The translations under genes and the position numbers were made by a program. Shown piece by piece: positions 32,084-48,624 of a stretch of 48,624 nucleotides of DNA; within the stretch, counting starts at the first letter, position 1; every line of letters begins with the position of its first letter. The stretch is from Chloroflexota bacterium (lineage in GTDB: Bacteria > Chloroflexota > Anaerolineae > B4-G1). The notes under the pieces were generated by a model that was given only the letters and a program-made list of their open reading frames with translations, was not told the DNA's origin and made no database searches. Location of the stretch: assembly GCA_011048615.1 (NCBI GenBank), contig DSDT01000399.1, forward strand, positions 1 to 48,624. Direction: 5' to 3'.

Positions 32084-32112
32084 TTGACTTTGAGGCCAAG
32101 TTGCAATATACT
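32084..32112 (+). promoter_or_regulatory. Sigma-70 promoter TTGACT-17 nt-TATACT, with the -10 box only 9 nt from the mobB ATG (probable leaderless or near-leaderless mRNA)
   Basis: TTGACT at 32084..32089, TATACT at 32107..32112, ATG at 32122. No SD in between. Confidence 0.45.
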
Positions 32113-32121
32113 GGCGTCACT

Positions 32122-32652
32122 ATGAACTCTGATCGAGAGAGAACGCCGATTCCCGTGGTCTCTTGCGTGGGGCGCTCCAACAGCGGCAAGACGACGGTTT
32201 TGGAACACCTGATCGCCGAGTTGAGGCGGCGTCGGCATCGCATCGCCGTCGTCAAACACTATCACCGCTCCGACGTCGAGTTTGACGTGCCAGGCAAGGA
32301 TTCATGGCGCTTTGCCCAGACGGGGGCCGAGCAGGTGATCCTGGCGGCGCAGGACCGGGTGATCCACATCCGCCGCTGCGAGCAGGCGCCAACCCTGGCC
32401 GAGGTAGTCGGCGAGATCCGGGATGTGGACCTGATCCTGGTCGAGGGGTACAAGGGGGCCGCCGTCCCCAAGATCGAGGTCAATCGGCGGGCGCGGGATC
32501 CCGAATTGGTGTGTGTGGGGGACGAGATGTTGATCGCCGTCGTGTCTGACCAATGTTTCGACCTGGACGTGCCCCAGTTCGACTTGGCGGACGCAGCGGG
32601 CCTGGCGGACCTAGTCGAGGCCCATTACTTGGGAGAGCGGCAGCGGCGATGA
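32122..32652 (+). CDS. mobB: Molybdopterin-guanine dinucleotide biosynthesis adapter protein MobB
   Basis: P-loop VGRSNSGKTTVLEHLI, IAVVKH, ILVEGYK. Start moved to ATG 32122 (MNSDRERTPIPVV). Confidence 0.85.
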   Translation: MNSDRERTPIPVVSCVGRSNSGKTTVLEHLIAELRRRRHRIAVVKHYHRSDVEFDVPGKDSWRFAQTGAEQVILAAQDRVIHIRRCEQAPTLAEVVGEIRDVDLILVEGYKGAAVPKIEVNRRARDPELVCVGDEMLIAVVSDQCFDLDVPQFDLADAAGLADLVEAHYLGERQRR

Positions 32653-34220
32653 GATGGCAGGGCGCCGACTGGAGGCGCATCCAGTCTTTTTGGCGGATCG
32701 GGCTGTTCCTGTTGGTGGGCCTCCTGGTCCGGTGGCGATTCGTGGCCCAGTCCGCCTACCCCTTGGGAGAGGGCGGCCTCTTTTATTACGTCATCCAGTA
32801 CGTCGCTGACCACGGCGCGCTGCCCGTCGAAATCCCGTACTATAGTGGCGGAATCCCCTTCGTCTATCCCCCGCTGGGATTTCTCTCCTACGGGGCGATC
32901 GTGCGGTATACGTCGCTCTCCCTCTTGACGGTGATGCGCTGGGCCAGTTTTCTCTTTTCCTCCCTCTCGTTGTTCGTCTTTGCGGCCCTGGCGCGCCGTT
33001 TTCTGCGCGAGGTGGCGTGGGAATTCGCCGTGTTGAGCTTTGCCACCTTGCCCAGCACTGTCTGGCATACCGCCGCCTCCGATAGCGTGCGCAATCTGGC
33101 GTTCGTGCTGTTGTTGGCGGGGGCTTTCTTTGCTCACGGCGCGCTGACCGAACAGCGTGGATGGCGCTGGACGGCCGCGGCCGGTCTCTTGCTGGGGCTG
33201 ACGGCGCTGGTCCATCCCCCCGCCGCGCTGGGATTGGGCTTGATCGTGGCCCTGTTCACGATCTACTATGGCGTCGAATGGGGCGGTCGCGGGTTGCTCG
33301 TCGGAGGTAGCATCGGCGGCCTCGCGGCGATCGTCATGCTGCCCTGGTTTCTCTTCTTGTACCGCAGCCACGGGCCGGGATTCGTCGCTATGTTGCGGAA
33401 TGGGTTCTTCTCCCGGCCGCACGCCACCATCTGGCTCTTTTCCCTCTTGAAATTCGGCCCCACCCGGGAACCGTTCGCTCACCTGTGGGCCGTCCTGGGC
33501 GTGGTAGGTGTGATCTGTGCGTGGGTTGCCGGGAACGGCCTTCTGGCGCTGTGGTTCCTCATCACGCCTCTCCATTGGAGCGATCACATCTACAGCCTGC
33601 CCCTGGCGCTGGGGGCCGGCTGGTCCATCGGGGAGGTCATTCTCCCCTGGATGCGGGCGCGCGTGGTCCACTCCTGGCGTGCAGTGGCAGCAGTGCTGCT
33701 CTGCGCTCTCCTGTTCTATGCGACTCTGGGGGCGACGACGCCCGCCGATTACCGCGAGATGCAGCCCCAGGTGACGAAGGCGCGGCTGGAGGCCTGGGAG
33801 TGGATGTCCGATCACCTGGCTGCCGATTCCTGGGTCACCATCGTGGGCGAGGACTCGGAGTGGGTGCCGGCCATGGCTCAGGTCTGTTCCAACATTCCCC
33901 AGGGAGCCGAGTGGACAGGTCAGTTCGTGGATTATGCCTGGATGTACAACGCGTTGGTCTCTGTGCCCACCTACGACGAGTTGCTCCGCATCCTACGTCA
34001 TTATCGTCAGCCGATTGCCTACCTGTACGTGTCCACGCCTCCCGGCTCTGGCTCTTGGGACGGCAGGGATGGAGAGTGGGTATATCATTCCGAGGGGGAA
34101 CCGCTGCGTCATCGGCAGGCGTTTCGGCGCTCTGTAGAGCAGCAGGCGTGCGTGCAGCGAGTTTACGAAAACGAGGAGGTGGTGTTGTTCGACTTGAGAG
34201 CGTGTGACCTTTCGTGGTGA
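32649..34220 (+). CDS. Large polytopic membrane protein, GT-C/ArnT-like putative glycosyltransferase
   Basis: Start ATG 32649 overlaps the mobB stop (ATGA). More than 10 TM segments, a GGIPFVYPPLGF loop, and a C-terminal soluble tail ending VYENEEVVLFDL. The functional call is by architecture only. Confidence 0.5.
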   Translation: MRWQGADWRRIQSFWRIGLFLLVGLLVRWRFVAQSAYPLGEGGLFYYVIQYVADHGALPVEIPYYSGGIPFVYPPLGFLSYGAIVRYTSLSLLTVMRWASFLFSSLSLFVFAALARRFLREVAWEFAVLSFATLPSTVWHTAASDSVRNLAFVLLLAGAFFAHGALTEQRGWRWTAAAGLLLGLTALVHPPAALGLGLIVALFTIYYGVEWGGRGLLVGGSIGGLAAIVMLPWFLFLYRSHGPGFVAMLRNGFFSRPHATIWLFSLLKFGPTREPFAHLWAVLGVVGVICAWVAGNGLLALWFLITPLHWSDHIYSLPLALGAGWSIGEVILPWMRARVVHSWRAVAAVLLCALLFYATLGATTPADYREMQPQVTKARLEAWEWMSDHLAADSWVTIVGEDSEWVPAMAQVCSNIPQGAEWTGQFVDYAWMYNALVSVPTYDELLRILRHYRQPIAYLYVSTPPGSGSWDGRDGEWVYHSEGEPLRHRQAFRRSVEQQACVQRVYENEEVVLFDLRACDLSW

Positions 34221-34455: not shown

Positions 34456-35349
34456 ATGATGACAAAGAGAATAGCTTGGATTATCGTGGGCGTGTTGGCG
34501 CTGGTGATGCTGACCACGACGACGGCGTGGGCCAGCGACGGGGTAGCGCCGGTGGTGCAGGAGGAGATCGCGGCTGATGCCTTGTGGCTCACCCTGGCCC
34601 CGCTGATCGCGATTGCGATGTTTATCGAGCGGGCGTTGGAGGTGATCTGGGAGCGGTGGGAAAAGGCCCAGATCTGGCCGAATCCGGCCGGCGTGTCAGA
34701 TACGTCGGCCTCGGGTTATATGATGCAAAAACGGCTGCGCTCTCAGTGGCTGGGGACGGCGATCGCGTTCGCCGTCATCGGCCTGACCAACGTGCGGCTC
34801 TTTCGCCTGCTGGGTTTTGACGTGCTCTTTTCATCTCCCAACATGGTCTTGTTCGACGCGGGGATCGGGGGGATTTTCGACGCGTTTACCGTGGGCACGC
34901 TGATTGACTGGACGATGACCGCCATCATCGTCGGCTGGGGCGGCACCGAGCTGACTCACAACGTGATCGAGGGACTGGTCAAGGGGCGCGGGCTGTGGAA
35001 AGAGATGCGGAACGTCGAGGCCGGCCGCCAGTCCATCCTGGATGCCAGGTTCTTTAACGACTATATCACGCCCGAATTGGAAAAACGAGGGGTCTCGGTC
35101 GCTTCATTGCGTCAGGTGGTCGATGTGCTGAAACAGTTAGGCGTGTCGGCAGATCAGATCGTCAGTTCTATGACCACCGGCAAGGTGGACGAATTGTTGG
35201 CTCAGTTGGAGGTTCAACCGGACAAGGCGGCGGCCGCGCAGTCCTTGCGAACGTTCCTGGATGGCGTGCCTCCCGAAAAGCAGATGGAGATTCCCAACGT
35301 CCTCAACCTGTTGACCAGGGAGCAAAAGCAGCGGTTCCTGGGAGTTTGA
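34456..35349 (+). CDS. Hypothetical secreted/membrane protein (signal peptide, about 3 TM, helical C-terminal tail)
   Basis: Signal peptide ending TTAWA/SD. Hydrophobic segments follow, then a charged helical C-terminus. No motif recognised. Confidence 0.6.
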   Translation: MMTKRIAWIIVGVLALVMLTTTTAWASDGVAPVVQEEIAADALWLTLAPLIAIAMFIERALEVIWERWEKAQIWPNPAGVSDTSASGYMMQKRLRSQWLGTAIAFAVIGLTNVRLFRLLGFDVLFSSPNMVLFDAGIGGIFDAFTVGTLIDWTMTAIIVGWGGTELTHNVIEGLVKGRGLWKEMRNVEAGRQSILDARFFNDYITPELEKRGVSVASLRQVVDVLKQLGVSADQIVSSMTTGKVDELLAQLEVQPDKAAAAQSLRTFLDGVPPEKQMEIPNVLNLLTREQKQRFLGV

Positions 35350-35369
35350 ACGGTCTGGGGCTAAAAGTT

Positions 35370-35406
35370 GAGGCGGAGGCCAAGTTCTCGATTGGCCCTC
35401 CGCCTC
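35370..35406. terminator. GC-rich hairpin between convergent genes (likely copA terminator, possibly bidirectional)
   Basis: GAGGCGGAGG-CCAA / TTGG-c-CCTCCGCCTC stem (14 bp with one bulge) and an 8-nt loop. On the minus strand it is followed by CAACTTTTAG. Confidence 0.6.
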
Positions 35407-35469
35407 CCAGATATTGAAGAGACTCTTTCAACTCGCTTTGATCTCACAGGCCCGGTTTTTTGCTTGCCA

Positions 35470-37926
35470 CTACAACCTCACCCCCCGCAGCCGCAAACTG
35501 TTGCTGACGACGGTGACGGAGCTGAAAGCCATCGCGAAGGCCGCCAGCACCGGGTGAAGCTGCCGCAGGATGTCGGGGATCCAAGGCCAGGGCAGCGGCG
35601 CCAGCGCGCCCGCCGCGATCGGGATCAGGATCACGTTGTAGAAAAAGGCCCAAAACAGGTTCTGTTTGATGGTGCGCATCGTCGCCCGGCTGAGGGTCAA
35701 CGCCTGAGGTACAGAGCGTAGATCGCCTCGCATCAGCGTCACGTCGGCCGTCTCCATCGCTACGTCGGCGCCCGTGCCGAGCGCAATGCCGACGTCGGCC
35801 TGGGCCAGCGCGGGAGCGTCGTTGATGCCGTCCCCCACCATGCCGACCAGGTATCCTTCTTCTTGCAGGTGCTTGATCTGCGCGGCTTTGTCGGCGGGCA
35901 GCACCTCGGCGATGACCCGATCAATTCCCACTTGCCCGGCGATGGTCTCGGCGGTGCGTTGGTTGTCGCCGGTCAGCATCACCGTCTTCAGTCCCAGACG
36001 GTACATCTGAGCCACGGCCTCGACGGAACTATCTTTCAGCGTATCGGCGATGCCGATGACGCCGAAGGCCGCGCCGTCCACCGCGACCACGATGGCGGTT
36101 TTGGCCTCCCTCTGCAGCCGTTCGATCTCGGTCGTCAACTCATCCAGCGGGATGCCATCGGCCTCGACCCATGCAGGCTTCCCCACCACCACCGATCGCC
36201 CGTCCACCTGGGCACGGATGCCCCGGCCCGGAAGCGCCTCGAATTCCTCCGGGTCCGCCGTGGAGAGGTCCCCTTCCTCGGCGTAAGCGACGATAGCCTG
36301 TCCCAGCGGATGCTCGGAACCGCGCTCGGCCGAGGCGGTCAGGCGCAGGAGCTCGTCGCGAGTCACGCGCTCCGGGTTGGAAGCTGCGATGTCGGTGACG
36401 GTCGGTTCCCCCTTGGTGAGAGTGCCGGTCTTGTCCAGAACGACGACGTCCAGCCGGTGGGCTGTCTCCAGGGCCGCGCTGTTCTTGAACAGGATGCCTA
36501 ACGCTGCTCCCTTGCCGGTACCGACTATGATGGCGGTCGGCGTCGCCAGCCCCAGGGCGCATGGGCAGGCGATGACCAGCACCGCCACCAGGCGGATCAT
36601 CGCCGAAGTAAAGTCGCCGGCGATCCACCAGATGGCGAAGGTGAGCAGAGCGATGGTGATAACGATCGGGACGAAGACGCCGGTGACCTGGTCGGCCACT
36701 CGCTGGATGGGGGCCTTGCTTCCCTGGGCTTCCCGCACCAGGCGGATGATCTGGGCCAGCGCCGTCTCGGTGCCGACGCGGGTGGCCTCGAATTTGAGCA
36801 GTCCCTGCTTGTTGATGGTCGCGCCGATGACCTCGTCGCCGCGTTTTTTGTCCACCGGGAGCGGCTCGCCCGTCAGCATACTCTCGTCCACCGCCGAGCG
36901 GCCCTCGACGACGATGCCGTCCACCGGTATACGCTCGCCGGGCCGCACGACGACGACGTCGCCGACGCGCACCGCTTCGACCGGCACGTCCACCTCCGCG
37001 CCGTCTCGCACGACGCGGGCGGTCTTGGGGCGCAGCCCCATCAGTGTGCGGATCGCCTCGCCGGTCTGACCTTTTGCGCGAGCTTCCAACAGTTTGCCCA
37101 GTTTGATCAGCGTGATGATGACGGCCGAGGTCTCGAAATAGACGTGATGCCCGGAGCCGGGCAGGAGCAGCACAGCGATGCTGTAGACGTATGCGGCGGA
37201 CGACCCCATCGCCACCAGCACATCCATATTGGCGGTGCGGTTGCGCAGCGTGTGGTAGGAACCGACGTAGAAATCCCCACCGGTGTAGAACTGAACCGGC
37301 GTCGCCAGCGCCAGGAAGAGCCAGTTGACCCAGGCGGCGTGCGCCCAGTGGCCCAGGAGTCCAAAGTCGCGGGCCATACTGAACAGAAAGAGCGGCAGGG
37401 TGAAGATGACGCCGACCCAGAATTTGCGAGTCTGGTCGGCGATCTCGGCCTGCCGGGCCTGGGCCTCGACGTCTTCGAGGGGACGCTCGGCGTCGGCGGC
37501 GGTCTGCACCACTCCGTAACCGGCCTCCTCGATCGCCCGGATCATGTCGGCGACGGAGGCCACGCCGGGGATGTACTCGACGGTGGCCCGCTCGGTCGCC
37601 AGATTGACGCTGGCCTCGACGACGCCGGGGACTTTCAGCGTCCGCTCGATGGCAGCAGCACAGTTGGCGCAGGTCATCCCTGTAATGGGCAGCTCGACCG
37701 TGGCCGTCACGACGCCATAGCCAGCTTCTTGCACCCGCTTCACCAGGTCGGCTGGCCTCATCGCGGCCGGATCGAAGGATATCGCTGCCTGCTCGGTGGC
37801 AAAGTTCACCGCCGCATCGGAGACGCCGTCCGCCTTTTTGAGACTGCGCTCAACAGTAAAGGCGCAGTTGGCGCACGTCATCCCGGTGATGGGCAGATTG
37901 AGGTGGGTCGGTTCGGGCGTGTTCAT
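35470..37926 (-). CDS. copA: Copper-translocating P1B-type ATPase
   Basis: Two N-terminal HMA domains (GMTCANC twice), a CPC transmembrane motif (ACPCALG), DKTGTLT and GDGINDAP. Confidence 0.95.
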
Positions 37927-37929
37927 ATC

Positions 37930-38136
37930 TCACTCCGCCGGTGGATAGTTGATCTCGGCCAGCAGGGCCTTGATACCATCCCAATCGGCCGGCGCATCCC
38001 ACTCGACAGTGACCGTCTTGGTGTTCGCATCGGCATCCACACTGGTGACGCCCGCTAGTTCACCTACTTCCCGCTTGATGGTCATCACGCAGTGATTGCA
38101 ACTGATGTTTGGAACCTGGAATGTCTTGTTCGCCAT
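37930..38136 (-). CDS. copZ: Copper chaperone, HMA domain (CopZ-like)
   Basis: 68 aa with a ferredoxin-like HMA fold and CxxC as ISCNHC. It ends 3 nt upstream of the copA start. Confidence 0.85.
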   Translation of the reverse strand: MANKTFQVPNISCNHCVMTIKREVGELAGVTSVDADANTKTVTVEWDAPADWDGIKALLAEINYPPAE

Positions 38137-38243: not shown

Positions 38244-38272
38244 TTGGTCTTGACGACAATTTGTGCTACAAT
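38244..38272 (+). promoter_or_regulatory. Extended -10 promoter (TTGGTC-17 nt-TGcTACAAT), 7 nt from ATG 38280 (probable leaderless mRNA)
   Basis: TG at 38264..38265, TACAAT at 38267..38272, ATG at 38280. No SD. Confidence 0.45.
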
Positions 38273-38279
38273 CAGGCCT

Positions 38280-39872
38280 ATGCCTGCAGAGCCTGAATCT
38301 CGAGGAGGCGTGGAGCGTAAAGAGTGGCGCTGGGTCGCGCTGGTGACGCTGGCGCTGGTCATCGTGAGCAGCCTGCCGTATGTGCTCGCCTGGGCTGCCG
38401 CGCCGGAGGACGCCCAGTTCACCGGGCTGCTGGTCAATCCCCTGGACGGCCACTCGTACATCGCCAAGATGCGCCAGGGGCTGGAAGGCTCGTGGCGCTT
38501 TCACCTGGTCTTTACGCCTGAACCACACGCGGGAGCCCCTGTCTTTCTGTTTTATTTGGTGCTGGGTCACCTGGCGCGGTGGACCGGACTGCCCCTCGTC
38601 GCCATCTACCACGCCGGCCGAGTTCTCGCGGGGGCGGCGCTGCTCGTCTTGCTCTATCGGCTCGTCACCCTGCTGATGGACGACCGCCGGCAGCGACGTT
38701 TCACGTTCTTCCTGCTGGCTCTTTCCTCCGGGTTGGGGTGGCTGGTCGCACCGCTGACGGGCTACCTGACGGCCGACCTGTGGGTCCCGGAGGCGTTCAC
38801 GTTCTACTCGATCCTATACAATCCCCACTTTCCGTTGGCCATCGGCCTGATGTTGGTCGTTTTCATCGCGTTGGCGCGCCCTGGACGGCCGCCGGGCTGG
38901 CGGGAGGGGTTCGTCGCCGTGGCCGCGTCGCTGGGTCTGGGCATAGTCCAGCCCTTTGGCGTGATCCCGGTCTATGCGACGTTGGCGGTCTGGCTGGCGC
39001 TGCGCTGGCTGCGGGACCGTCGGCTGGACAGGCGGACAGCCGGGGTGACGGCGCTGGTCGGCCTGGCGGCGGTGGCCTATCCGCTGTACGGCATGCTCGC
39101 CATCGAGGCGGACCCGGTGCTGGCGGCGTGGAACGCCCAGAACCAGACCCCCTCGCCGCCGGTGTGGGATTGGCTGCTGAGCCTGGGGGTTCTGGCGGCG
39201 TTGGCGATACCGGGGCTGGCGCTCGCCCTCCGCCGGCGCTCGGATGGAGACCTGCTGTTGGTTGCGTGGGTGCTGGCGGTCGGAGTGGGAATGTACGCCC
39301 CGCTGGCGCTCCAACGGCGGTTAGCCTTGGGGGTGCAGACGCCGGCAGCGATCCTGGCGGCGATGGGATGGTGGGAGGCAGTGCGGCCCCGTCTGCGGGC
39401 GCGCCGGCGAGGGCCGGCAGGCGGGGTGGTGCTGGGATTCTCGGCCCTGACCCACGGTTTCTTGATGGGGATGCTCGTGCTGGCGGCGCTGCAAGGGGAA
39501 CCGCGTTTCTACCTCCGCACTGGGGAGCCGCAGGCGTTCGAGTGGCTGCGGGAGCAGGTCAGTCACGACCAGGTGGTGCTATGTGCGCCGCAGAACGGAA
39601 TGTTCGTGCCGGCGTGGGCCGGTCAGCGCGTGGTCTATGGCCATCCCTTCGAGACGGTGGACGCGGAGCGGCGGGAGGTGCAGGTGGAGGCCTACTTTGC
39701 CGGCGCGATGAGTACGGCCGAGCGGGAATCGTTCTTGCAAGAGAACCGAGTGGGGTACGTGCTGGTCGGGCCGAGGGAACGGGTGCTGAAGGGCGGTGGA
39801 GTCGAGACCGGAGATTGGCCGGTGGTGTTTGAGGCTGGCGACGTGAGGATTTACCAGGTCGGTGAACGATAG
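38280..39872 (+). CDS. Large polytopic membrane protein, unassigned family 'A' (paralogue 1), GT-C-like by architecture
   Basis: Start refined to ATG 38280 (MPAEPESRGGVERKEWRWVALVTL...). It shares the signature SLPYVLAW...DGHSYIAKM...GSWRFHLVFTPEPH...FYLVLGH and the C-terminal tail ...VGPRERVL...VRIYQV with the genes at 44036 and 45652. Confidence 0.6.
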   Translation: MPAEPESRGGVERKEWRWVALVTLALVIVSSLPYVLAWAAAPEDAQFTGLLVNPLDGHSYIAKMRQGLEGSWRFHLVFTPEPHAGAPVFLFYLVLGHLARWTGLPLVAIYHAGRVLAGAALLVLLYRLVTLLMDDRRQRRFTFFLLALSSGLGWLVAPLTGYLTADLWVPEAFTFYSILYNPHFPLAIGLMLVVFIALARPGRPPGWREGFVAVAASLGLGIVQPFGVIPVYATLAVWLALRWLRDRRLDRRTAGVTALVGLAAVAYPLYGMLAIEADPVLAAWNAQNQTPSPPVWDWLLSLGVLAALAIPGLALALRRRSDGDLLLVAWVLAVGVGMYAPLALQRRLALGVQTPAAILAAMGWWEAVRPRLRARRRGPAGGVVLGFSALTHGFLMGMLVLAALQGEPRFYLRTGEPQAFEWLREQVSHDQVVLCAPQNGMFVPAWAGQRVVYGHPFETVDAERREVQVEAYFAGAMSTAERESFLQENRVGYVLVGPRERVLKGGGVETGDWPVVFEAGDVRIYQVGER

Positions 39873-41868
39873 AACGTGGGAGGATCTCCTGTGCTGCGCG
39901 CTGTTGGCTGTTCTATCCCTGGTCCTGTTGTGGCCGGTGGTGGCGCATCCGGGATGGTGGCTCTGGTCGCCGCGGGCCGAGCACCCGGACCTGGCGGTCA
40001 CTCACTGGCCGAACGCCCACCTGACGCGCCGATCGCTGTGGGATGAGGGCCGCTTTCCCCTGTGGCGGTCCACGCTGATGAGCGGGACACCCCTGGCGGC
40101 CAATCCAGTGGCCGGGTTGTACTATCCTCCCAATTGGCTGTTCCTATTTCTGCCCTGGCTGCCTCTGGAGGTGGGGTTCAACCTCTCGGCGCTGGCGCAT
40201 CTGTGGCTGGCCGGGGCGGCGATGTTCGCGCTGCTGCGGCAGGGCCTCCGCGCGGGGGCGTGGGGGGCGCTGGCGGCGGGAGTGGTGTACGAGGCGGCCC
40301 CCAAGCTGCTGGCCCACCTGGGGGCGGGGCACGTCGGCTGGATGCAGGCCTGGGGCTGGCTGCCGCTGGTGATCCTGGGTTGGATCAAGCTCGGCGACGC
40401 CGGGACGAATCGGCGGGCCGGATGGTGGATGGTGGGGGCGGCCGTGGCCCTGGCGTGCCAGTTCTGCGCGGACGTGCGGATGGCGGCGTACACATTGATC
40501 TTGGTGATGACGTGGTCGCTGGTTTCTCTCCTGCGCCGCCCGCGGGCGGCCGGGCGGTACGTGGCGCGGATCGCCGGGGTCCTCGCCCTCCTCGCGGGGC
40601 TGACGGCCTGTCAATGGCTGCCGCTGGCGGCGCTGCTGCCAGAGACGACGCGGGACGGGATGACGCTGCGTGACGCGGCAGTCTGGTCGCTGCCCTGGAG
40701 GTATCTGGCGGGCGTGTTCATCCCGGACCACGGCGGCTTTCACGAGTGGATGGTCTACGTCGGCGTGGTTCCGCTGGTGCTGGCCGGGATCGGTGCGAGG
40801 GCGGTGTGGCGCCGGCCGGGGGAGCGGTGGCTGGTCGGCTGGTTGGTGAGCGTGGGTATCGGAGCGGCCTGGTTCTCTCTGGGTGAAAACGGCGGGCTGT
40901 TCCAGCTGCTGTGGCGGCTCGTGCCGGGCCTGGGACTGCTGCGGGTGCCGCCCCGCGCCTGGGTACTGGTCCATTTTGCGGCGGCGGCGCTGGCAGGACT
41001 GGGGGTCGATGAGGTGTGGCGGGGGAGGCAGCCAGGCCGCTGGGCCGGTCCGCTGTTGCTGGCGGTCGGGACGGCCGCGCCGCTGCTGGCGGTCGGGTTC
41101 TGGCTGTCGGCGGGAGCGCTGCCCTTGAACCTGGCGCTGTTCGGTCTGCTGACGCCCCTCGTCGCGGCGCTGGTGGGGTTCGGGGCGCGAGGGCGGGCGA
41201 AACCGGGTCCGTTTTGGAGTGGCACGGCCGTCCTGCTGATCGCCATCGACCTGCTGGTGGTGGATGGGACGCTGGTGGAGGTCCGCTCGCCGGCCCAGGT
41301 GTGGGCGGATGGTCAGGCAGCGGCCGAGTGGCTGGCGGCGCAGCCCGGCGAGTTTCGCGTCTACTCGCCCAGTTACAGCCTGCCCCAACACGTGGCGGAG
41401 CGGTATGGCCTCGCCCTGGCCGACGGCGTGGATCCCCTGCAGCTGCGGGTCTATGCCGATTATCTGACCCGCGCGGCTGGACTCGATCCCCAGGCCCAGG
41501 GGTACAGCGTGACCTTGCCGCCCTTTCCCGAAGGGGCGGCCGATGTGCGCCTGGCCTTGCAGGATGTGACGCCAGACCCAGGGCTGCTGGGGGCTTTGGG
41601 CGTGCGGTACGTGGCGGCGGCTTTTCCCCTCCATCATCCCAGCTTGACCGAGGCGGCGATCCAGGACGGCGTCTACATCTATCTCAACGGCGCGGCGCAG
41701 CCGGTCATGGACGTCGAGCAGGGCATCACATTGAGTGGTGGCACGCCGCTGTTTCAGTACGATCCGACGCCGGTGTATGTGGGATGGGCGTTTTCTGGCC
41801 TGGCGGTGGGCAGTTTGCTGCTCTGGTTCCGGGCGCGGTGGAGCGATGGTGTATCCCTTGAGCGGTAG
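39862..41868 (+). CDS. YfhO-family GT-C membrane glycosyltransferase-like protein (paralogue 1)
   Basis: GTG start overlaps the upstream gene by 11 nt. N-terminal GRFPLWRSTLMSGTPLAANPVAGLYYPPNWLF pattern, typical of YfhO proteins. Many TM segments. 668 aa. Confidence 0.65.
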   Translation: MNDRTWEDLLCCALLAVLSLVLLWPVVAHPGWWLWSPRAEHPDLAVTHWPNAHLTRRSLWDEGRFPLWRSTLMSGTPLAANPVAGLYYPPNWLFLFLPWLPLEVGFNLSALAHLWLAGAAMFALLRQGLRAGAWGALAAGVVYEAAPKLLAHLGAGHVGWMQAWGWLPLVILGWIKLGDAGTNRRAGWWMVGAAVALACQFCADVRMAAYTLILVMTWSLVSLLRRPRAAGRYVARIAGVLALLAGLTACQWLPLAALLPETTRDGMTLRDAAVWSLPWRYLAGVFIPDHGGFHEWMVYVGVVPLVLAGIGARAVWRRPGERWLVGWLVSVGIGAAWFSLGENGGLFQLLWRLVPGLGLLRVPPRAWVLVHFAAAALAGLGVDEVWRGRQPGRWAGPLLLAVGTAAPLLAVGFWLSAGALPLNLALFGLLTPLVAALVGFGARGRAKPGPFWSGTAVLLIAIDLLVVDGTLVEVRSPAQVWADGQAAAEWLAAQPGEFRVYSPSYSLPQHVAERYGLALADGVDPLQLRVYADYLTRAAGLDPQAQGYSVTLPPFPEGAADVRLALQDVTPDPGLLGALGVRYVAAAFPLHHPSLTEAAIQDGVYIYLNGAAQPVMDVEQGITLSGGTPLFQYDPTPVYVGWAFSGLAVGSLLLWFRARWSDGVSLER

Positions 41869-41955
41869 TTTTTCCTCAATTCCCAGGTGGTATACTGGCC
41901 GGGATGGGGAGAGAATTACAAAGACCGAGTAAAGATGTGATTGGGAGGTGTGATA

Positions 41956-44034
41956 GTGAGATCCAAGTTTGACGTTTTTCTGCGTTGGTGGCCGTTGTTT
42001 CTGATCAGCAGCCTGGGACTTTTTTTGGAGACGGCCGTGATCCGCTGGATCGCCGGTGAGGTGCGGTTGATGGCGTACTTTAAAAACCTTCCCCTGTTGG
42101 CGGCCTTTTTGGGACTATCCATCGGTTTCGCCCTCGTGCGAAGGGGGCGAAATTACCAAGATATATTTGGCCCCACGCTGGTACTCTTTGTTGTGCTGGT
42201 CCTGGCAATTGGGCGGGTCAGCTCCCCCCGTTTCCTGGCCTATCCCGGCAGCAGCGACGAGTTTCTGTGGTATCAGGGCAGTTTTTCCTACTGGGTCGCG
42301 TTGGTCGTGTTTTTGAGCACGGTGACGATCTTTTTCCTACTGACCGTCTTTCTCTTTATTCCTCTGGGACAGGTGACCGGAAAGGAGATGGCTCGGCACG
42401 CGCCGGTGCCAGCCTATCTCGTCAACATCCTGGCCAGCCTGGCAGGAGTGTGGGCGTTCGCCCTCGTCTCTTACCTGCAGACGCCGCCGGTGGTCTGGTT
42501 CGGCGTCGGTCTCCTGGGGGTGGGGGGATATTGGGCGGCTCAAAAGTCACTGTCGCGTTCGACCTGGATCAGTTTCGTGGTGGTATTGATCGGACTGGCC
42601 GTGTTCGGACGGGGGACGATCTGGTCGCCGTACCAACGGTTGGAGGTCTCTGACCTGGTTCGTACACGGCGCAGTGACGGCGAACCGGTCAACGTGGGGT
42701 ACAACTTGCACGTTCAGCAGGTTTTTTATCAGTACGCCATTGATCTCTCGCCGGGATTCTTGGCTCGCTTGGAGGGCGAGGTCCCCGAGATGGAGGAGTG
42801 GGCTTTTTCCTACAACCTGCCCTATCGCCTCGGGCCGGAGGGAGCGCGGGTGTTGATTGTCGGCGCGGGGATGGGCAACGACGTCGCGGCAGCACTGCGG
42901 AACGGCGCAGGGTACGTGGATGCCGTGGAAATTGACCCCGTCATTCTGGATCTGGGGCGGCAACTGCATCCCGAACAACCCTACGCCGACCCGCGCGTCA
43001 ACGCGATCGTGGACGACGCGCGCTCCTTTTTCGAGACGAGTTCCGACCAGTACGACGTGGTGGCGTTTGGGCTGTTGGATTCGCATACCTTGCTTTCGGG
43101 CCTTTCCAGCGTGCGACTGGATTCCTTCGTCTACACCCTGGAAAGCTTTGAGCAGGTGCGAAACCATCTGGCCGACGACGGGGTGGTGGCGGTGACGTTT
43201 TACGTCAGCGAGACGGCGCCCTGGATCGAGCAGCGTTTGGGGCGCATGCTGATGCAAGTGTTCGGATCGGAGCGCGTGTTCGTCCACAAGGGCGAGATCG
43301 GCACGACCTTTGTGGCCGGGCCGGTGCGCCCCGATCAGTTGGCAGAGATGCAGCTCGCGGCCTGGCAGCCGGATCCCACGGCGGAGGACGTGCCGCTGAC
43401 CACCGACGATTGGCCGTACCTTTACCTGCGCACGCACACAGTGCCATCGGCCTACTGGCAGGTCTTGTTGTTGATCGGTGTGGTTTGCCTGATTCTCCTG
43501 CGGCGCTCCTTTCCGGAGGTGCTGCGTCCCAACTGGCATTTTTGGCTCCTGGGAGCGGCCTTTTTGCTCATCGAGTTCAAGTGCGTCACCGAGTTTGCGC
43601 TTCTCTTTGGCACCACCTGGCTCGTCAATGCGCTGGCCATATCCGGCGTCCTGCTGATGGCCCTGGGCGCCAATCTGGTGGTGCTGCGACTGCCCCGTCT
43701 CAACGTGCGCCTGACCTATGTCCTGCTGTTTGCCAGCCTTGTGCTCACCTATTTCTTCCCCCTGGACCTGTTGATCGGTTTTCCGGCGGCTATCCGCGCC
43801 GTGGCGAGCATGGTCTTGCTCTCCCTGCCCTTGTTCTTTGCGGGCATGATTTTCAGCGAGTCACTGCGCCGGACCGGGGAGACGGCCGTGCCTTTGGCCT
43901 CCAATCTGAGCGGATCGGTCGCGGGCGGGGTGCTCGAATATGGATCGCTGCTGTGGGGGATCAAGAGCCTGTACATCATTGGGGCCGTGGTGTATGTCGC
44001 CGCTATGCTGGCCTCGCGCCTCCAACGCCGGTGA
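41956..44034 (+). CDS. Membrane-embedded spermidine-synthase-like (class I SAM-dependent transferase fold) protein flanked by two TM domains
   Basis: About 7 TM, then VLIVGAGMGNDVAAALRNGAGYVDAVEIDPVILDLGR...VNAIVDDARSFF...YDVVAFGLLDSHT, then about 6 TM. I prefer GTG 41956, 7 nt after GGGAGG; the ORF opens at TTG 41941. A TGgTATACT extended -10 box lies at 41888..41896. Confidence 0.7.
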   Translation: MRSKFDVFLRWWPLFLISSLGLFLETAVIRWIAGEVRLMAYFKNLPLLAAFLGLSIGFALVRRGRNYQDIFGPTLVLFVVLVLAIGRVSSPRFLAYPGSSDEFLWYQGSFSYWVALVVFLSTVTIFFLLTVFLFIPLGQVTGKEMARHAPVPAYLVNILASLAGVWAFALVSYLQTPPVVWFGVGLLGVGGYWAAQKSLSRSTWISFVVVLIGLAVFGRGTIWSPYQRLEVSDLVRTRRSDGEPVNVGYNLHVQQVFYQYAIDLSPGFLARLEGEVPEMEEWAFSYNLPYRLGPEGARVLIVGAGMGNDVAAALRNGAGYVDAVEIDPVILDLGRQLHPEQPYADPRVNAIVDDARSFFETSSDQYDVVAFGLLDSHTLLSGLSSVRLDSFVYTLESFEQVRNHLADDGVVAVTFYVSETAPWIEQRLGRMLMQVFGSERVFVHKGEIGTTFVAGPVRPDQLAEMQLAAWQPDPTAEDVPLTTDDWPYLYLRTHTVPSAYWQVLLLIGVVCLILLRRSFPEVLRPNWHFWLLGAAFLLIEFKCVTEFALLFGTTWLVNALAISGVLLMALGANLVVLRLPRLNVRLTYVLLFASLVLTYFFPLDLLIGFPAAIRAVASMVLLSLPLFFAGMIFSESLRRTGETAVPLASNLSGSVAGGVLEYGSLLWGIKSLYIIGAVVYVAAMLASRLQRR

Positions 44035-44035
44035 T

Positions 44036-45655
44036 ATGAACACGGATTCGCAGTCTGCGCCGTATCAGGTCTGCATCACACGACGAGAGATGGGATGGGT
44101 CGCTCTGGTGAGCGTGACGCTGCTGGCGGTGACCAGCCTCCCTTACCTGGTGGGTTGGTGGATGGACGCGCACGACGCCGCCCACGTATTCGGCGGGTTC
44201 ATCTATGCCGTGGAGGACGGCAACTCGTACCTGGCCAAGATGCAGGTCGGCGCGGCGGGGCATTGGTTGTTCTACCTGGCCTACACCCCGGAGCCACACC
44301 AGGGGGAGCTTTTTTTCCTCTACTACATTCTGCTGGGTAAACTGAGCCGGCTGCTGGGCCTCTCGATGCTGACTGGGCTGCACCTGAGCCGTATCCTGAC
44401 CGTGCCGTTTGGCCTCTTTTGTTACTACCGCTTTATCGCGTACTGGACCTTCGACTGCGCGGTGCGCCGCTGGGGACTGGCACTGTTCGCGTTCACAGCC
44501 GGTTTGGGGTGGCTGTGGGTGGTCCTGGGGGGCGGTTCGACGTTGGGGGCCATGCCGGTCGATCTGTGGGTGCCGGACGCCTCCTACTTTTTCTCGGCCC
44601 TCTTGTTTCCTCACCTGCCCCTGGCTCAGGGACTGCTGCTTTGGTTCGTGACGGACGCCCTCGAGTTCCTCGCGGTCGGTCGTGTCCGTTCGGGCGCGAT
44701 GGCCGCCCTGGTAGGACTTTTGGTCAGCCTGATTCACCCCTACACGCTGCCGGTGATTGGTGTCGTGGTGGGGCTGTTCGCCGCCTGGCAGGTCCTGCGC
44801 CGCCGGTGGCTGTTCTGGCCGACGGTGGGCCGGCTGGCGGCGGCGATGGCGCCGACGATCCCCTACCTGGCCTACAATGGGTTCGTCTTTTGGAACAATC
44901 CGGCTTTCCAGTCTTGGCGCGAGCAGAGCCAGACCGTCTCACCGGCTCCGGTACACTACCTGTTGGGGCTGGGATTTATCCTGATATGGGCCGTGGTCGG
45001 GATAGCGCGCCGGCGAACGTGCGAGGGACGGCCTCTCGATTTCTTGATCGTCTGGGCGGCGGCAGTGCCGATCCTGATCTATCTGCCCAGCTCGATCCAG
45101 CGCCGCTTCCTGGACGGGTATCAGGCCCCCTTGACCGTATTGGCCGCCTGCGGTTTGCGGAGCGTGTTCTCTGATCTGCGCCGTCCCCAGGTCCGGCGAT
45201 TGGCGCCGGGCCTGGTCGTGGGGTTGATGATGTTGACCAACCTGCTGCTGATCGTGGGGGCGCTGGCGGTGCTCCCGGGGCGGGACGAGCCGCTCTTTCG
45301 CCCGGGCGCGGAACAGGCGGCGGCGGATTGGCTGGCCCGGCGTGCTCAAGGCGAGGTCGTGTTGAGCGGTTACGAGAGCGGCAACTATTTGCCGACCCGA
45401 GGGGCGATGCGTGTCTTTCTTGGTCACAGGCCAGAGACGATGCGCTCGGCGGAGAAGCGAGACCTGGTCGCGAGTTTCTTTTCCGGGGAGACGGACGATG
45501 CCTGGCGGCAGCGACTGCTCGCCAAGTACGACGTGCGCTGGGTGTGGTGGGGGCCGTGGGAGCGGGCGTTAGGCCCGTTCGATCCGGGGACGTGCGAGTA
45601 CCTCGACCCTGCCTACGACGTCGGCGGGTACGCCGTTTTCGAGGTGGTGCGGTGA
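44036..45655 (+). CDS. Large polytopic membrane protein, family 'A' (paralogue 2)
   Basis: ATG 44036 lies 1 nt after the upstream stop. TSLPYLVGW...DGNSYLAKM...GHWLFYLAYTPEPH...YYILLGK and a C-terminal VWWGPWERALGPFDP...YAVFEV. Confidence 0.6.
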   Translation: MNTDSQSAPYQVCITRREMGWVALVSVTLLAVTSLPYLVGWWMDAHDAAHVFGGFIYAVEDGNSYLAKMQVGAAGHWLFYLAYTPEPHQGELFFLYYILLGKLSRLLGLSMLTGLHLSRILTVPFGLFCYYRFIAYWTFDCAVRRWGLALFAFTAGLGWLWVVLGGGSTLGAMPVDLWVPDASYFFSALLFPHLPLAQGLLLWFVTDALEFLAVGRVRSGAMAALVGLLVSLIHPYTLPVIGVVVGLFAAWQVLRRRWLFWPTVGRLAAAMAPTIPYLAYNGFVFWNNPAFQSWREQSQTVSPAPVHYLLGLGFILIWAVVGIARRRTCEGRPLDFLIVWAAAVPILIYLPSSIQRRFLDGYQAPLTVLAACGLRSVFSDLRRPQVRRLAPGLVVGLMMLTNLLLIVGALAVLPGRDEPLFRPGAEQAAADWLARRAQGEVVLSGYESGNYLPTRGAMRVFLGHRPETMRSAEKRDLVASFFSGETDDAWRQRLLAKYDVRWVWWGPWERALGPFDPGTCEYLDPAYDVGGYAVFEVVR

Positions 45656-47262
45656 CAGGGTCGCCGGCGGCCCATCCGACGGTCACGCGGCGCGAGTGGC
45701 GCTGGGCGGCGCTAATGTCCCTGGCAACGCTGGTGGTCGTCAGCCTGCCCTACCTGGTGGGCTGGGTCGTGCAGACGCCGGAGCGGGTGTTCGGCGGCTG
45801 CATCCTGCTGAGCGACGATTGTTACTCCTACCTGGCCAAGATGGCCCGGGGCGCGGCGGGGGACTGGCTGTTCCGCATGCCGTATACCCCAGAGCCGCAC
45901 ACGCCGACGCTGCTCTACCTGTTCTACTTGCTGCTGGGCAAAGTGTCCGCGCTGACAGGTCTCTCGACCGAGGCGACCTATCACCTGGCGCGGGTGGCGC
46001 TGGGATGGGGGATGATGCTGGTGGTGTACCGTTTCCTGGCGGTCTTCACACCGGCGGTCCGGGTGCGCCGCCTGGCCTGGCTGATGGTCGCCTTGGGGGG
46101 TGGGTTGGGATGGCTGCTGATCCTGCTGGGGCAGCCGAACTGGCTGGGGAGCCCGCCGCTGGACGTCTACCTGCCGGAAGGATTTGCCCTGCTGGTCTTG
46201 TATGGCTTTCCTCACTTGGCGGCCGCCCAGACGCTGCTGTTGGGGGGAATGTTGAGCCTGCTGCGGGCCTGGGAGGAATGCCGAATCGCGCGCCCTGCTG
46301 CATCCCTCTGGTGGGCCGTGCTGGCTGGTCTGGCCTGGTTCGCCATGGGCTGGATCGTCCCGTTCTACGTGGCTGTGGTGTGGGCCGTGATGGGATCTGC
46401 GTGGGTTGTGCTGGCTCTCCGGCGGCGGCGCGCGCCCTGGGGCGAGGGGGTGGGGTTGGCGGCGGCGGCTCTCCTCGCCGTGGGGCCGGTGCTGTACAGT
46501 GGATGGGTGTTCACCACCGATCCGGTGTACGCTGCCTGGGCTGCCCAGAACCTGATTCTCTCTCCCCACCCACTCCACTTTTTGGCGGCCTATGGCACAC
46601 CCCTGCTGCTGGCGGCCTTTGCCGTGCGGGTGGCCTGGCGTGACGAGGGCTGGGGTTGGCTGGCGCTGGTGTGGGTCGCAGTGGCAGCGGTGCTGGCTTA
46701 CCTGCCGTTCAACTTGCAGCGCCGATTGGTGCAGGGCGTGCAGACACCGCTCTACGCCCTGGCGGCTGGCAGCGCGGTGCGGCTGTGGCGGTCGAGGGGG
46801 CGCTGGCTGGCAGCGCTGCTGCTGGCGGCCATGCTCCCCACCACCCTCATCATCCTGGCTGGCAGCGGCGCATCGCTGCTCAACCGCCCGCGCCTCGTCT
46901 TCCGCCCGGCCGGCGAGGTCGCCGCGCTGGACTGGCTGTCTGAGCGCGTCCAACCCGACGACGTGGTGCTGGCCGCCTACGACACCGGTAACTATTTGCC
47001 GGTGCGGGTAGTGGCGCGGGTGTTCGTGGGGCATGGGTTCGAGACGATGGACGCCGAGGAGAAAGAAAGACTGGTGGCCCGATTTTTCGATCCAGAAGCC
47101 GATGACGCCTGGCGGCGTGATCTGCTGACCCGCTACGGTGTGGATTACGTCTTTTGGGGGCCGGAGGAGCGGCGGCTGGGGGCCTTCGACCCGCGCGACG
47201 CCTCGTACCTGCGGGCGGTGTACGACGCCGGTGGATACACGATTCTCGAGATCGAGCGGTGA
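45652..47262 (+). CDS. Large polytopic membrane protein, family 'A' (paralogue 3)
   Basis: GTG 45652 overlaps the upstream TGA (GTGA). VSLPYLVGW...DCYSYLAKM...GDWLFRMPYTPEPH...FYLLLGK and a C-terminal VFWGPEERRLGAFDP...YTILEI. Confidence 0.6.
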   Translation: MTGSPAAHPTVTRREWRWAALMSLATLVVVSLPYLVGWVVQTPERVFGGCILLSDDCYSYLAKMARGAAGDWLFRMPYTPEPHTPTLLYLFYLLLGKVSALTGLSTEATYHLARVALGWGMMLVVYRFLAVFTPAVRVRRLAWLMVALGGGLGWLLILLGQPNWLGSPPLDVYLPEGFALLVLYGFPHLAAAQTLLLGGMLSLLRAWEECRIARPAASLWWAVLAGLAWFAMGWIVPFYVAVVWAVMGSAWVVLALRRRRAPWGEGVGLAAAALLAVGPVLYSGWVFTTDPVYAAWAAQNLILSPHPLHFLAAYGTPLLLAAFAVRVAWRDEGWGWLALVWVAVAAVLAYLPFNLQRRLVQGVQTPLYALAAGSAVRLWRSRGRWLAALLLAAMLPTTLIILAGSGASLLNRPRLVFRPAGEVAALDWLSERVQPDDVVLAAYDTGNYLPVRVVARVFVGHGFETMDAEEKERLVARFFDPEADDAWRRDLLTRYGVDYVFWGPEERRLGAFDPRDASYLRAVYDAGGYTILEIER

Positions 47263-47383
47263 TCAGCAATTCCCGTTATGGAGTTCGTAGTAGCGACTTT
47301 CGCTGTTTGCGCAATAGAAGCGACTAAAGTCGCCACTACGAACGTCAAATGTGTGACGGCGATGCTAAAATGGGAATTGCTGA
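47263..47383. mobile_element. 121-bp nested palindromic element with 12-bp terminal inverted repeats and a 7-bp flanking direct repeat (MITE-like)
   Basis: TIRs: TCAGCAATTCCC 47263..47274 and GGGAATTGCTGA 47372..47383 (12/12). Inner 18-bp inverted repeat: 47283..47300 with 47326..47343 (17/18). GCGGTGA sits directly outside both ends (47256..47262 and 47384..47390). Confidence 0.45.
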
Positions 47384-47389
47384 GCGGTG

Positions 47390-48624
47390 ATGAGAGGGGG
47401 CGAGGGGATGGGACGGGGCGCAGGATTCGAGAGGCGGGTTGACCGTCGAGAGTTGGAGGTGGTGGCCGGTCTGGCGTTGTTTGCCGTCATGCTGCTGTGG
47501 CGGCCCCTCTTGACCGGCGAGGTCTTTTTTTGGGGCACGCCGCTGCTCCAGTTCGTGCCCTGGCAGCGGATGGCGGCCTCGATGTGGCGCCAGGGTCACC
47601 TGCCGCTCTGGAACCCGTTGGTGGGCTGCGGTGCGCCGCTGGCGGCCAACTATCAGACGGCGGCCTTTTACCCCCTGAATCTGCTCTACCTGCTGCTGCC
47701 GGTCGCTGTGGCCCTGGTGTGGACCACGGCGCTGCACCTCCTGCTTACTGGTTGGGGGATGTACCGCTGGGGACGGGCGGTGGGTCTGGAACGGTTCCCG
47801 GCCTTGATAGGCGGATTGACCCTGGCGGGCAGCGCTTTCCTGGTGACCCGGATCGCCCTGTTCCCCAGCGTGGCGGTCACCTTTCCCTGGCTGGCCGTCT
47901 GGTTGTGGCGGGCCGAGGCATTGGCGCGGCGCTGGCGGCTGCGCGATGCCCTCGGGCTGGGCCTGGCCCTGGGGCTGGGGCTGCTGGCCGGCCACGCGCA
48001 GACTGCTTTCTACGGTGGCCTGCTATTGGCTGCCTACCTGCTCTTTCGGACGGTGCAGGAGGGACGGTATACCCTGCGCCAAACAGCATACGTCGGGCTG
48101 GCCCTGGCGGTGGGCGTGGGCCTGGCAGCGGTGCAACTGCTCCCCACAGCCGAGCTGATGGCCTCGTCGCAGCGCTCGGCCGGCGTGGAGTATGATTTCG
48201 CGATGACCTATTCGCTGTGGCCCTGGCGGCTGATCACGTTCGTCGCGCCCGGCTTTTTCGGCCATCCGGGCCGGGGCGATTACGCCGGCTATCCCAACTA
48301 TTGGGAGGGAGCGGGGTACGTGGGGCTGCTGCCGCTCCTTCTGGCGGTGGAGGCGGTGCTGAGCGGGTGTCGTGGGCAAGGGAAGCGGACCGGGGGCGGT
48401 CAGGTCTGGTTCTGGGTCGGCAGCGCGGCGGTGGCGTTGACGTTGGCGCTGGGCCGGAACACGCCGATTTTCCCGTTCCTGTTTCGCCACGTCCCGACCT
48501 TTGACTTGTTCCAGGCCCCGGCCCGCTGGCTGGCGGTCGTCACGGTGGCGCTGGCGGCGCTGGCAGGGTGGGGCGCGCAGGCCTGGCCGCGGGGCCACCG
48601 GGGACGGCGGCTGGGGGCCTGGAG
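47390..48624 (+). CDS. YfhO-family GT-C membrane protein (paralogue 2); partial, runs off the window
   Basis: Absent from the ORF track because no stop is reached. The frame is open from the stop at 47381..47383 to the window end. It reads ...LLWRPLLTGEVFFWGTPLLQFVPWQRMAASMWRQGHLPLWNPLVGCGAPLAANYQTAAFYPLNLLY.... Start is ATG 47390, or ATG 47408 (SD GAGAGGGGG). Confidence 0.65.
   Translation, partial: MRGGEGMGRGAGFERRVDRRELEVVAGLALFAVMLLWRPLLTGEVFFWGTPLLQFVPWQRMAASMWRQGHLPLWNPLVGCGAPLAANYQTAAFYPLNLLYLLLPVAVALVWTTALHLLLTGWGMYRWGRAVGLERFPALIGGLTLAGSAFLVTRIALFPSVAVTFPWLAVWLWRAEALARRWRLRDALGLGLALGLGLLAGHAQTAFYGGLLLAAYLLFRTVQEGRYTLRQTAYVGLALAVGVGLAAVQLLPTAELMASSQRSAGVEYDFAMTYSLWPWRLITFVAPGFFGHPGRGDYAGYPNYWEGAGYVGLLPLLLAVEAVLSGCRGQGKRTGGGQVWFWVGSAAVALTLALGRNTPIFPFLFRHVPTFDLFQAPARWLAVVTVALAALAGWGAQAWPRGHRGRRLGAW

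Follow-up and report, generated by a model that had tools for sequence, protein, structure and literature searches.

A conserved Anaerolineae gene cluster of GT-C-type membrane glycosyltransferases with a probable role in cell-surface glycan synthesis

A total of 48,624 nucleotides (nt) from a Chloroflexota bacterium (assembly GCA_011048615.1, contig DSDT01000399.1; hereafter the window) were used for the analysis. The 3' part of the window carries six consecutive genes for polytopic membrane proteins, designated A1, Y1, S, A2, A3 and Y2 (g1 to g6; Table 1). Analysis showed that these six genes are the front part of a longer cluster, which is conserved in Anaerolineae (Chloroflexota). All but one of the encoded proteins are integral membrane glycosyltransferases of the GT-C type and fall into two families, with three members in a family designated here family A and two of the YfhO type; S combines membrane helices with a SpeE-like domain. 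Overall, our analysis suggests, with a probability of roughly 0.68, that the cluster acts at the outer face of the cytoplasmic membrane, where it glycosylates or polymerises a glycan of the cell surface, and that it probably depends on a polyprenyl-phosphate-sugar donor. An initial annotation, made from the sequence alone, had proposed a dedicated system with an envelope role; conserved arrangement of A and Y genes in 79 Chloroflexota loci is consistent with such a system, and an envelope-glycan role is the best reading of the results.

An open reading frame (ORF) check located all six genes on the forward strand, and public gene calls on the source contig agree with the six ORFs, except that the start of Y2 is called at 47408. 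A1 and Y1 overlap by 11 nt and A2 and A3 by 4 nt (GTGA), and a single nucleotide separates S from A2; these tight junctions suggest co-translation. Longer gaps occur between Y1 and S (87 nt, with the sequence TGgTATACT inside) and between A3 and Y2 (127 nt). The genes, coordinates and junctions first annotated were thus reproduced by the ORF check, the public gene calls and the gap sequence. Since the upstream neighbours, a copper P-type ATPase and a small HMA protein, lie on the other strand, the cluster starts at about 38250. The source contig belongs to a Chloroflexi/Anaerolineae metagenome-assembled genome and its end coincides with the 3' edge of the window, inside Y2. An attempt to extend it past Y2 found that the public contig stops at the same base, and no identical full-length Y2 protein was found in the protein collection.

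Comparison of the three family-A proteins over their full length gave identities of 34% for A1 and A2 (E 2e-73), 35% for A1 and A3 (E 6e-56) and 41% for A2 and A3 (E 1e-88). The paralogy proposed earlier therefore extends to the whole protein, but the identity of 40-50% given for it is too high overall and was an estimate for the N-terminus only. Among the window copies only A1 passed the threshold of a Pfam family, DUF6541 (PF20176; 43.5 bits against a threshold of 29). A2 and A3 matched nothing in Pfam or NCBIfam, and DUF6541 was matched by only three of 48 family-A members. The earlier view that family A cannot be placed in a named family is thus contradicted by A1, while it holds for A2 and A3 and for all but three of the 48 members. 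A family-A profile compared with PDB sequences found nothing meaningful, and it was fold comparison alone that placed the family.

An AlphaFold2 (AF2) model of A3, built on a 48-sequence alignment, reached a predicted local distance difference test score (pLDDT) of 93.6 and a predicted template modelling score (pTM) of 0.92. The model has approximately 11 membrane helices and ends in an alpha/beta domain of some 127 residues. Foldseek comparison of the model with the PDB revealed 28 matches with E-values from 2e-8 to 6e-6, every one of them a GT-C enzyme, and the next match was at E 0.1. The GT-C matches include STT3/OST (oligosaccharyltransferase), AglB, PglB, DPY19, AftA, AftD and ArnT, with a probability of 1.00 and TMq values of 0.43-0.57. 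Judged by this model, family A has the GT-C fold. The fold part of the earlier proposal of a GT-C-like transferase is thus borne out; a match to a well-characterised family of unrelated function, which the initial annotation had named as evidence to the contrary, did not appear among the significant fold matches.

Analysis of conserved residues found D56, E81 and D171 to be invariant in 48 family-A members, and D56, K63, E81, D171, E176, R357, R358, H461 and E464 to be at least 90% conserved in a 130-sequence alignment. A topology with the N-terminus inside, deduced from the distribution of lysine and arginine and from helix parity, puts the conserved polar residues outside. In the predicted placement loop 1 contains D56, K63 and E81, loop 2 contains D171 and E176, and loop 5 contains R357 and R358, while H461 and E464 belong to the C-terminal domain. 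Outward-facing conserved polar residues, as predicted here, would conform to the GT-C pattern. Pattern searches found no strict DxD motif in family A and neither WWD nor W[WY]D[YWF]G in A1, A2 or A3. Because the WWD(Y/W)G motif is absent, family A is not an oligosaccharyltransferase in the strict sense.

With clustering at 50% identity, a profile search for family A retrieved 6,893 clusters at E <= 1e-3, of which 2,813 reached E <= 1e-30. The named homologues are all from Chloroflexi and are all recorded as 'hypothetical protein'. Orthologues of A1 with 52-69% identity hold the first cluster position in relatives. A 70%-identical orthologue of A2 is present in locus L090, and copies of the A2 type adjoin S in L091 and L092. 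A further membrane protein of the window, g0, had been described as of similar build. It has no Pfam or NCBIfam match, and its alignment to the family-A profile with hhalign (96% probability, E 4.5e-9, 341 columns) identifies it as a distant relative and as the fourth family-A-like GT-C candidate of the window, outside the cluster.

Y1 and Y2 had been annotated as YfhO-type paralogues, and profile alignment, the score of a full-length orthologue and NCBI names all agree with this. Direct comparison of the two window proteins is weak (E 0.002), and Y1 compared with full-length Y2-type proteins gives E 1e-17; the family profiles of Y1 and Y2 align with 100% probability (E 1e-64, 571 columns, hhalign). 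Against Pfam YfhO (PF09586), with a cutoff of 28.5 bits, Y1 scores 28.1 and the truncated Y2 scores 22.0, both under the cutoff, and the full-length Y2 orthologue of L003 (69% identical) scores 43.6. Y2 is 69-75% identical to full-length proteins of 808-818 amino acids in relatives; over the loci compared, the Y2 type is 808-854 amino acids long, and many of its homologues carry the NCBI label 'YfhO family protein'. Y1 represents a distinct, shorter subfamily of 630-730 amino acids, and its orthologues (52-61% identical) occupy the same cluster position in relatives. A full-length Y2 query found no match among PDB sequences. YfhO is a GT-C enzyme which, together with a GT2 (CsbB) and a GtrA-type flippase (GtcA), glycosylates teichoic acids outside the membrane (PMC8035078, PMC5836110).

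A database protein of 1391 amino acids (P0362) combines a Y1-type N-terminal half, a low-complexity linker and a family-A C-terminal half. It is either a true Y1-A fusion or an artefact of read-through or gene calling; a true fusion would support A and Y as a functional pair.

The family-A profile, run against species-representative genomes, yielded 187 relatives, from which 79 loci were kept and mapped by tblastn. All 79 belong to Chloroflexota, mostly to Anaerolineae, with Thermoflexia, Caldilineaceae and Ardenticatenales also present. An A gene stands directly before Y2 in 54 of the 79 loci, the order A-Y1-A occurs in 38, and the full core A-Y1-(S)-A-(A)-Y2 in 33. The order A-Y1-A-Y2 is kept in dozens of species-level genomes, down to 35-40% identity. 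In L002, L003, L005 and L006 an A1-type gene is followed by Y1, by one or two copies of the A3 type, by Y2, and then by a GT2 gene and an S-adenosylmethionine (SAM) methyltransferase gene. The core of the cluster is therefore A-Y1-A-Y2, and the window order A-Y-S-A-A-Y is a lineage-specific elaboration. An array built around S, as first described, is not borne out, S being absent from most versions of the cluster; of the expected co-occurrence of A, Y and S in Chloroflexota, the synteny of A and Y stands while S is optional.

Close relatives, defined by at least 50% identity to A3 and at least 4.5 kb of DNA after Y2, carry GT2 and methyltransferase genes after Y2 in 12 of 12 cases. The methyltransferase is approximately 305 amino acids long and the GT2 240-260; the GT2 is a short form and has no C-terminal membrane helices. 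Its nearest solved structure is the Dol-P-Man synthase of Pyrococcus furiosus (5mlz, E 9e-33), followed by ArnC and GtrB, and in NCBIfam it gives sub-threshold matches to PpgS, AglJ, ArnC and PgfS. The lipid-phosphate-linked sugar donor of family A is suggested by gene context, namely this GT2 downstream in close relatives. A third type of polytopic protein, designated Z (350-390 amino acids), often occurs between Y2 and GT2. Z exceeds the cutoff of 150 for NCBIfam NF046093, the 'AZOBR_p60025 family cell surface glycopolymer formation protein' (166.6 and 171.2 bits), and a Pfam GT87 protein in L091 matches Z with E 3e-13. The cluster of L009 has additional PIG-V-like and PMT_2-like genes. The earlier statement that the window lacks a GT2 is correct; that the donor pathway is unknown no longer holds in this form, for a candidate donor synthase follows Y2 in close relatives.

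The modelled fold of family A, the assignment of genes to families, the conserved gene order and the conserved residues are results of the analysis, whereas the following scheme, with its donor, direction of transfer and acceptor and its choice of polymer over decoration, is an inference. On the cytoplasmic side, the GT2 would load polyprenyl phosphate with a sugar that may be a hexose (mannose, for example), and the lipid-linked sugar would then be flipped across the membrane. Each GT-C enzyme would then use acidic residues of its outward loops (in family A, D56 and E81 of loop 1 and D171 and E176 of loop 2) for transfer of the sugar to an acceptor. Family-A and YfhO enzymes, with Z and others in some lineages, would each make a particular linkage on a surface acceptor, and the methyltransferase, perhaps together with S, would modify the product or the carrier. 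Four to six GT-C enzymes per single donor synthase imply several linkages and hence favour stepwise extracytoplasmic assembly over a single decoration.

Several observations weigh against a surface-glycan role of this kind. The active-site placement of D56 and the other residues follows from a predicted topology and not from structural superposition. In distant relatives the GT2 is often not adjacent, being within 6 kb in 12 of all 29 loci with enough DNA. Searches of the window by tblastn with the proteins of relatives found no homologue of GT2, the methyltransferase or Z, and the window contains no flippase or acceptor gene. No GtrA Pfam match was found among the called genes of L002, L003, L005, L006, L009, L010 and L090. 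Most clusters lack S, and in L007 and L008 S occurs by itself. A literature search found nothing on DUF6541, on AZOBR_p60025, or on YfhO or GT-C proteins in Chloroflexi or Anaerolineae. The lack of a donor synthase in the window is most probably an effect of the contig end rather than of biology, because the contig ends inside Y2 and close relatives carry GT2 and methyltransferase genes right after that gene. Likewise no GtrA Pfam match was obtained in the window ORFs scanned, and such a protein could be encoded elsewhere in the genome.

S matched Pfam Spermine_synth over residues 289-413 (34.5 bits, cutoff 22.9). In its AF2 model (pLDDT 87), a beta-hairpin domain of four strands and then a Rossmann domain lie between two blocks of seven membrane helices each. 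In the PDB the soluble part matches, by fold and by sequence, only spermidine/polyamine aminopropyltransferases; the top 50 Foldseek matches are all aminopropyltransferases (TMt 0.49-0.61), and the modelled soluble domain accordingly has the SpeE fold. Comparison with SpeE of Thermus thermophilus (1uir) revealed replacements at two hallmark positions. GGGEG is changed to GAGMG, with methionine in place of the acidic residue and the glycines invariant, and DLTDP is changed to GLLDS, with the first aspartic acid replaced by Gly372, which is invariant in 47 sequences. In SpeE structures, the residues at these positions bind the aminopropyl amine of decarboxylated SAM and serve as catalytic base, respectively. 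On S, every SpeE equivalog model of NCBIfam stays far below its cutoff (17-35 bits against 250-540), the best being PRK03612 (35.2 bits, cutoff 472), with TIGR00417 at 29.7 (cutoff 249.55). Since two hallmark catalytic residues are replaced and the equivalog scores are far below the cutoffs, S is unlikely to be a spermidine synthase and is probably a SpeE-fold protein that does not make polyamines. Of the membrane-embedded SpeE-like enzyme first proposed, the SpeE domain between two seven-helix blocks stands, and the spermidine synthase function becomes unlikely. The glycine-rich loop is conserved in S, as are the acidic residues E325 and D327 after strand 2 and D353/D354, so that S could still bind an adenosyl cofactor; a weak match to Methyltransf_25 was found in Pfam. 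Tentatively, S may be a SAM-dependent modifier or a structural or transport partner rather than a polyamine synthase.

S occurs inside the A/Y cluster in the window and in L009, L010, L017, L021, L022, L027 and L090, and in L091 and L092 it adjoins an A2-type gene and PMT_2/GT87 genes. It lies beside family-A or other GT-C genes in six of the eight S loci examined. S is thus an optional accessory of the cluster and its placement is not random. Identities in the S family are 60-77% in the best 120 of 4,801 matches, and several homologues are annotated by JGI as 'spermidine synthase'. Neither membrane half of S has a Pfam match, no signal was obtained for an internal repeat in the membrane halves or for kinship to A, Y or Z, and the positive-inside rule did not settle the topology of S. 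A second SpeE-like membrane family of 789-793 amino acids, about 24% identical to S (Pfam Spermine_synth 42-44 bits), occurs together with S inside GT-C clusters in L090 (16111..18091) and L091 (688..3057). A literature search found no paper linking a catalytically altered SpeE-fold membrane protein with GT-C glycosyltransferases, and nothing relevant on a spermidine synthase fused to an MFS protein.

Among the alternatives to a surface glycan, a protein glycosylation system was considered, in which family A, the YfhO proteins or both move the polyprenyl-phosphate-linked sugar onto secreted or surface proteins and no free polymer is made; actinobacterial PMT/Ppm1 O-mannosylation and the Pgf system of Streptococcus mutans (the GT2 PgfS with the YfhO-like PgfM1 and PgfM2) would be its models. 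The best fold matches of family A are the protein-modifying enzymes STT3, AglB, PglB and DPY19, but Foldseek scores to the lipid- and glycan-modifying AftA, AftD and ArnT are about equally good, and family A lacks a WWD/WWDYG-type motif and has a soluble domain of only about 127 residues. NCBIfam matches of Y2 to PgfM1/PgfM2 and of GT2 to PgfS point in the same direction as the fold matches, although they are weak and far under the cutoffs (15-49 bits against 500-1500). Giant beta-helix/CLIPPER surface proteins adjoin the L003 cluster and the A-S genes of L092; these are only two of the inspected loci. Five or six GT-C enzymes also exceed the number in known protein O-glycosylation systems, and on balance we consider protein glycosylation, the main rival reading, unlikely. 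The giant proteins (more than 1500 to more than 4200 amino acids), encoded immediately after the cluster in L003 (16067..>21674) and after the A-S genes in L092 (7526..>13582), are possible glycosylation targets.

A true membrane-bound polyamine aminopropyltransferase as the function of S, with a polyamine tied to the envelope, for example as a polyamine-modified wall polymer, would explain the above-cutoff Spermine_synth match, the PDB matches by sequence and fold, which include the N-terminal beta-hairpin domain, and the JGI labels. GAGMG in place of GGG(D/E)G, the invariant Gly372 in place of the first aspartic acid of D-x-x-D-P, the equivalog scores and the weak Methyltransf_25 match make it quite improbable. 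Least probable of all is a chance grouping of unrelated membrane proteins with no functional system. The window does lack a shared cofactor or donor gene, and the gap with a -10-like box before S and the 127-nt gap before Y2 would suit such a grouping; yet the A-Y1-A-Y2 order conserved among species already contradicts it, as do the overlapping coding regions and the apparent Y1-A fusion protein. Synthesis of a surface glycan outside the membrane thus remains the preferred reading. A bolder form of it would be a self-contained machine, independent of Wzx/Wzy and of ABC transporters, that polymerises a glycan or lipoglycan outside from one polyprenyl-phosphate-sugar, with A and Y as two-enzyme modules and S as a new GT-C partner which modifies (e.g. 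methylates) the lipid-linked sugar or translocates it in place of GtrA; this form is speculative and we would not expect it to hold in full.

The features of the window treated in this study are listed in Table 1.

Table 1. Genes of the cluster and other features of the window.
Feature	Position	Strand	Description
A1 (g1)	38280..39872	+	Family-A GT-C-fold membrane glycosyltransferase, 530 amino acids, Pfam DUF6541-type copy
Y1 (g2)	39862..41868	+	Divergent YfhO-superfamily GT-C membrane protein, 668 amino acids
S (g3)	41956..44034	+	692 amino acids; seven transmembrane (TM) helices, SpeE-fold domain (by model), seven TM helices
A2 (g4)	44036..45655	+	Family-A GT-C-fold membrane glycosyltransferase, 539 amino acids, g4-type subfamily
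A3 (g5)	45652..47262	+	Family-A GT-C-fold membrane glycosyltransferase, 536 amino acids; copy used for the AF2 model
Y2 (g6)	47390..>48624	+	N-terminal 405-411 amino acids of a YfhO-family GT-C protein (~810 amino acids); cut by the contig end
g0	32649..34220	+	Polytopic membrane protein, 523 amino acids; distant family-A relative; outside the cluster
Nested palindrome, 121 bp	47263..47383	strandless	Fills the g5-g6 gap; candidate intra-operon hairpin or small repeat element
TGcTACAAT extended -10-like motif	38264..38272	+	7 nt upstream of the g1 ATG; pattern match only

The palindromic insertion given earlier as the reason for the long gap between A3 and Y2 was found there. It has outer arms of 15 nt and inner arms of 18 nt, folds as RNA at -57.8 kcal/mol (z = -5.9) and occurs once in the window; neither the palindrome nor the region matched Rfam. 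Its inner arm and terminal 18 nt recur in other Anaerolineae loci, namely L014 (14091-14115), L039 (1696-1714), L005 (4866-4883), L006 and L012. The palindrome is a candidate for a dispersed small repeat or for a hairpin with a regulatory role. The motif TGcTACAAT was not scored in the consensus scan for want of a proper -35 box, and no Shine-Dalgarno-like sequence was found between it and the ATG of A1; it could be the promoter of the cluster, and the mRNA of A1 could be leaderless. The -10 box reported before S is present as TGgTATACT, but as a promoter it is a consensus match only. Because the promoter and terminator consensus scan found no more sites than in shuffled sequence, no claim on operon structure is made beyond the gene overlaps.

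The other large ORFs of the window are housekeeping genes according to Pfam. The copper-efflux pair next to the cluster (P-type ATPase and HMA protein) also precedes the cluster of L090 and is thus shared with at least one relative. An ORF of 297 amino acids without Pfam match (34456..35349) has a 71%-identical homologue in L090 (region 34456..38136 against L090 1..6181). An ATG22/MFS_1 transporter of unusual length (29850..32255, minus strand, 801 amino acids) has homologues in L002, L003, L024 and L026. It was considered as a core flippase and rejected, as homologues upstream of the cluster occur in only four distinct loci (L003 and L016 are one contig).

Anaerolineae are abundant, mostly uncultured filamentous bacteria whose envelope chemistry is poorly known. 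The cluster, which is conserved in many species, provides a testable locus for a major surface glycan. Family A, with approximately 6,900 clusters at 50% identity and a GT-C fold by model, has almost no Pfam coverage and no literature was found on it. The association of a SpeE-fold protein with GT-C enzymes is recurrent, and no report of it was found in the literature. That a GT2 makes a polyprenyl-phosphate-sugar which a GT-C enzyme transfers outside is an established principle; new here are family A, the architecture of paired A and Y genes and the partner protein with a SpeE-like domain.

Comparison with known systems begins with the Firmicutes systems, which combine a CsbB/GtrB GT2, GtcA/GtrA and YfhO or PMT_2 (PMC8035078, PMC5836110). 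The cluster shares with them a YfhO GT-C protein, together with a GT2 in relatives, and a sugar transfer presumed to take place outside the membrane. Unlike them, it has four to six GT-C genes of two or three families per GT2 instead of one, and no GtrA-family flippase in the cluster of the relatives inspected. The GT2 of relatives is short, has no C-terminal TM helices and is nearer to Dol-P-Man synthase than to GtrB. The cluster further includes a SAM methyltransferase and, in some cases, a membrane protein of the SpeE-like kind. To our knowledge, no teichoic acids are known in Chloroflexota.

The closest working analogy is the synthesis of lipomannan and arabinan in mycobacteria, where lipomannan, lipoarabinomannan and arabinogalactan involve the GT2 Ppm1 and the GT-C enzymes PimE, MptA-C, EmbA-C and AftA-D (PMC3485146, PMC12041525). 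As proposed here for the cluster, several GT-C enzymes extend the glycan outside from polyprenyl-monophosphate sugars supplied by a Ppm1/DPM1-like GT2. The fold matches of family A include AftA and AftD, and GT87-like Z and PIG-V/PMT_2-like genes occur in the clusters of relatives. The phylum is another one, and envelope and acceptor may differ as well. Family A has no detectable sequence similarity to the mycobacterial enzymes; it falls well short of Emb and AftD in size, and its soluble domain comprises only about 127 amino acids. The genes here form one compact operon, whereas mycobacterial GT-C genes are dispersed.

Structurally, family A is matched best by STT3, AglB and PglB (E 2e-8; TM-score on the query 0.5-0.57). 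They have in common with it approximately 11-13 TM helices followed by a C-terminal extracytoplasmic domain and, by the predicted topology of family A, an acidic residue in the first external loop. Family A differs in the absence of WWD(Y/W)G, in a far smaller C-terminal domain and in sequence (identity 9-14%), and its gene context points to a polyprenyl-monophosphate donor and not to a diphosphate-oligosaccharide. S shares the SpeE fold after an N-terminal TM block with SpeE proteins, including membrane-anchored forms (PRK03612). Unlike these, it has a second seven-helix block after the domain, lacks the acidic residue of GGG(D/E)G and the first aspartic acid of D-x-x-D-P, scores far below equivalog cutoffs and has GT-C glycosyltransferases as neighbours in place of polyamine genes.

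Overall, by analogy, the cluster would work like the transmembrane glycosylation systems that combine a GT2 with GT-C enzymes. With no GtrA in the cluster, another GT2 subtype, multiple GT-C enzymes and one GT-C family that has no characterised member, it appears to stand beside the characterised systems as a member of none of them.

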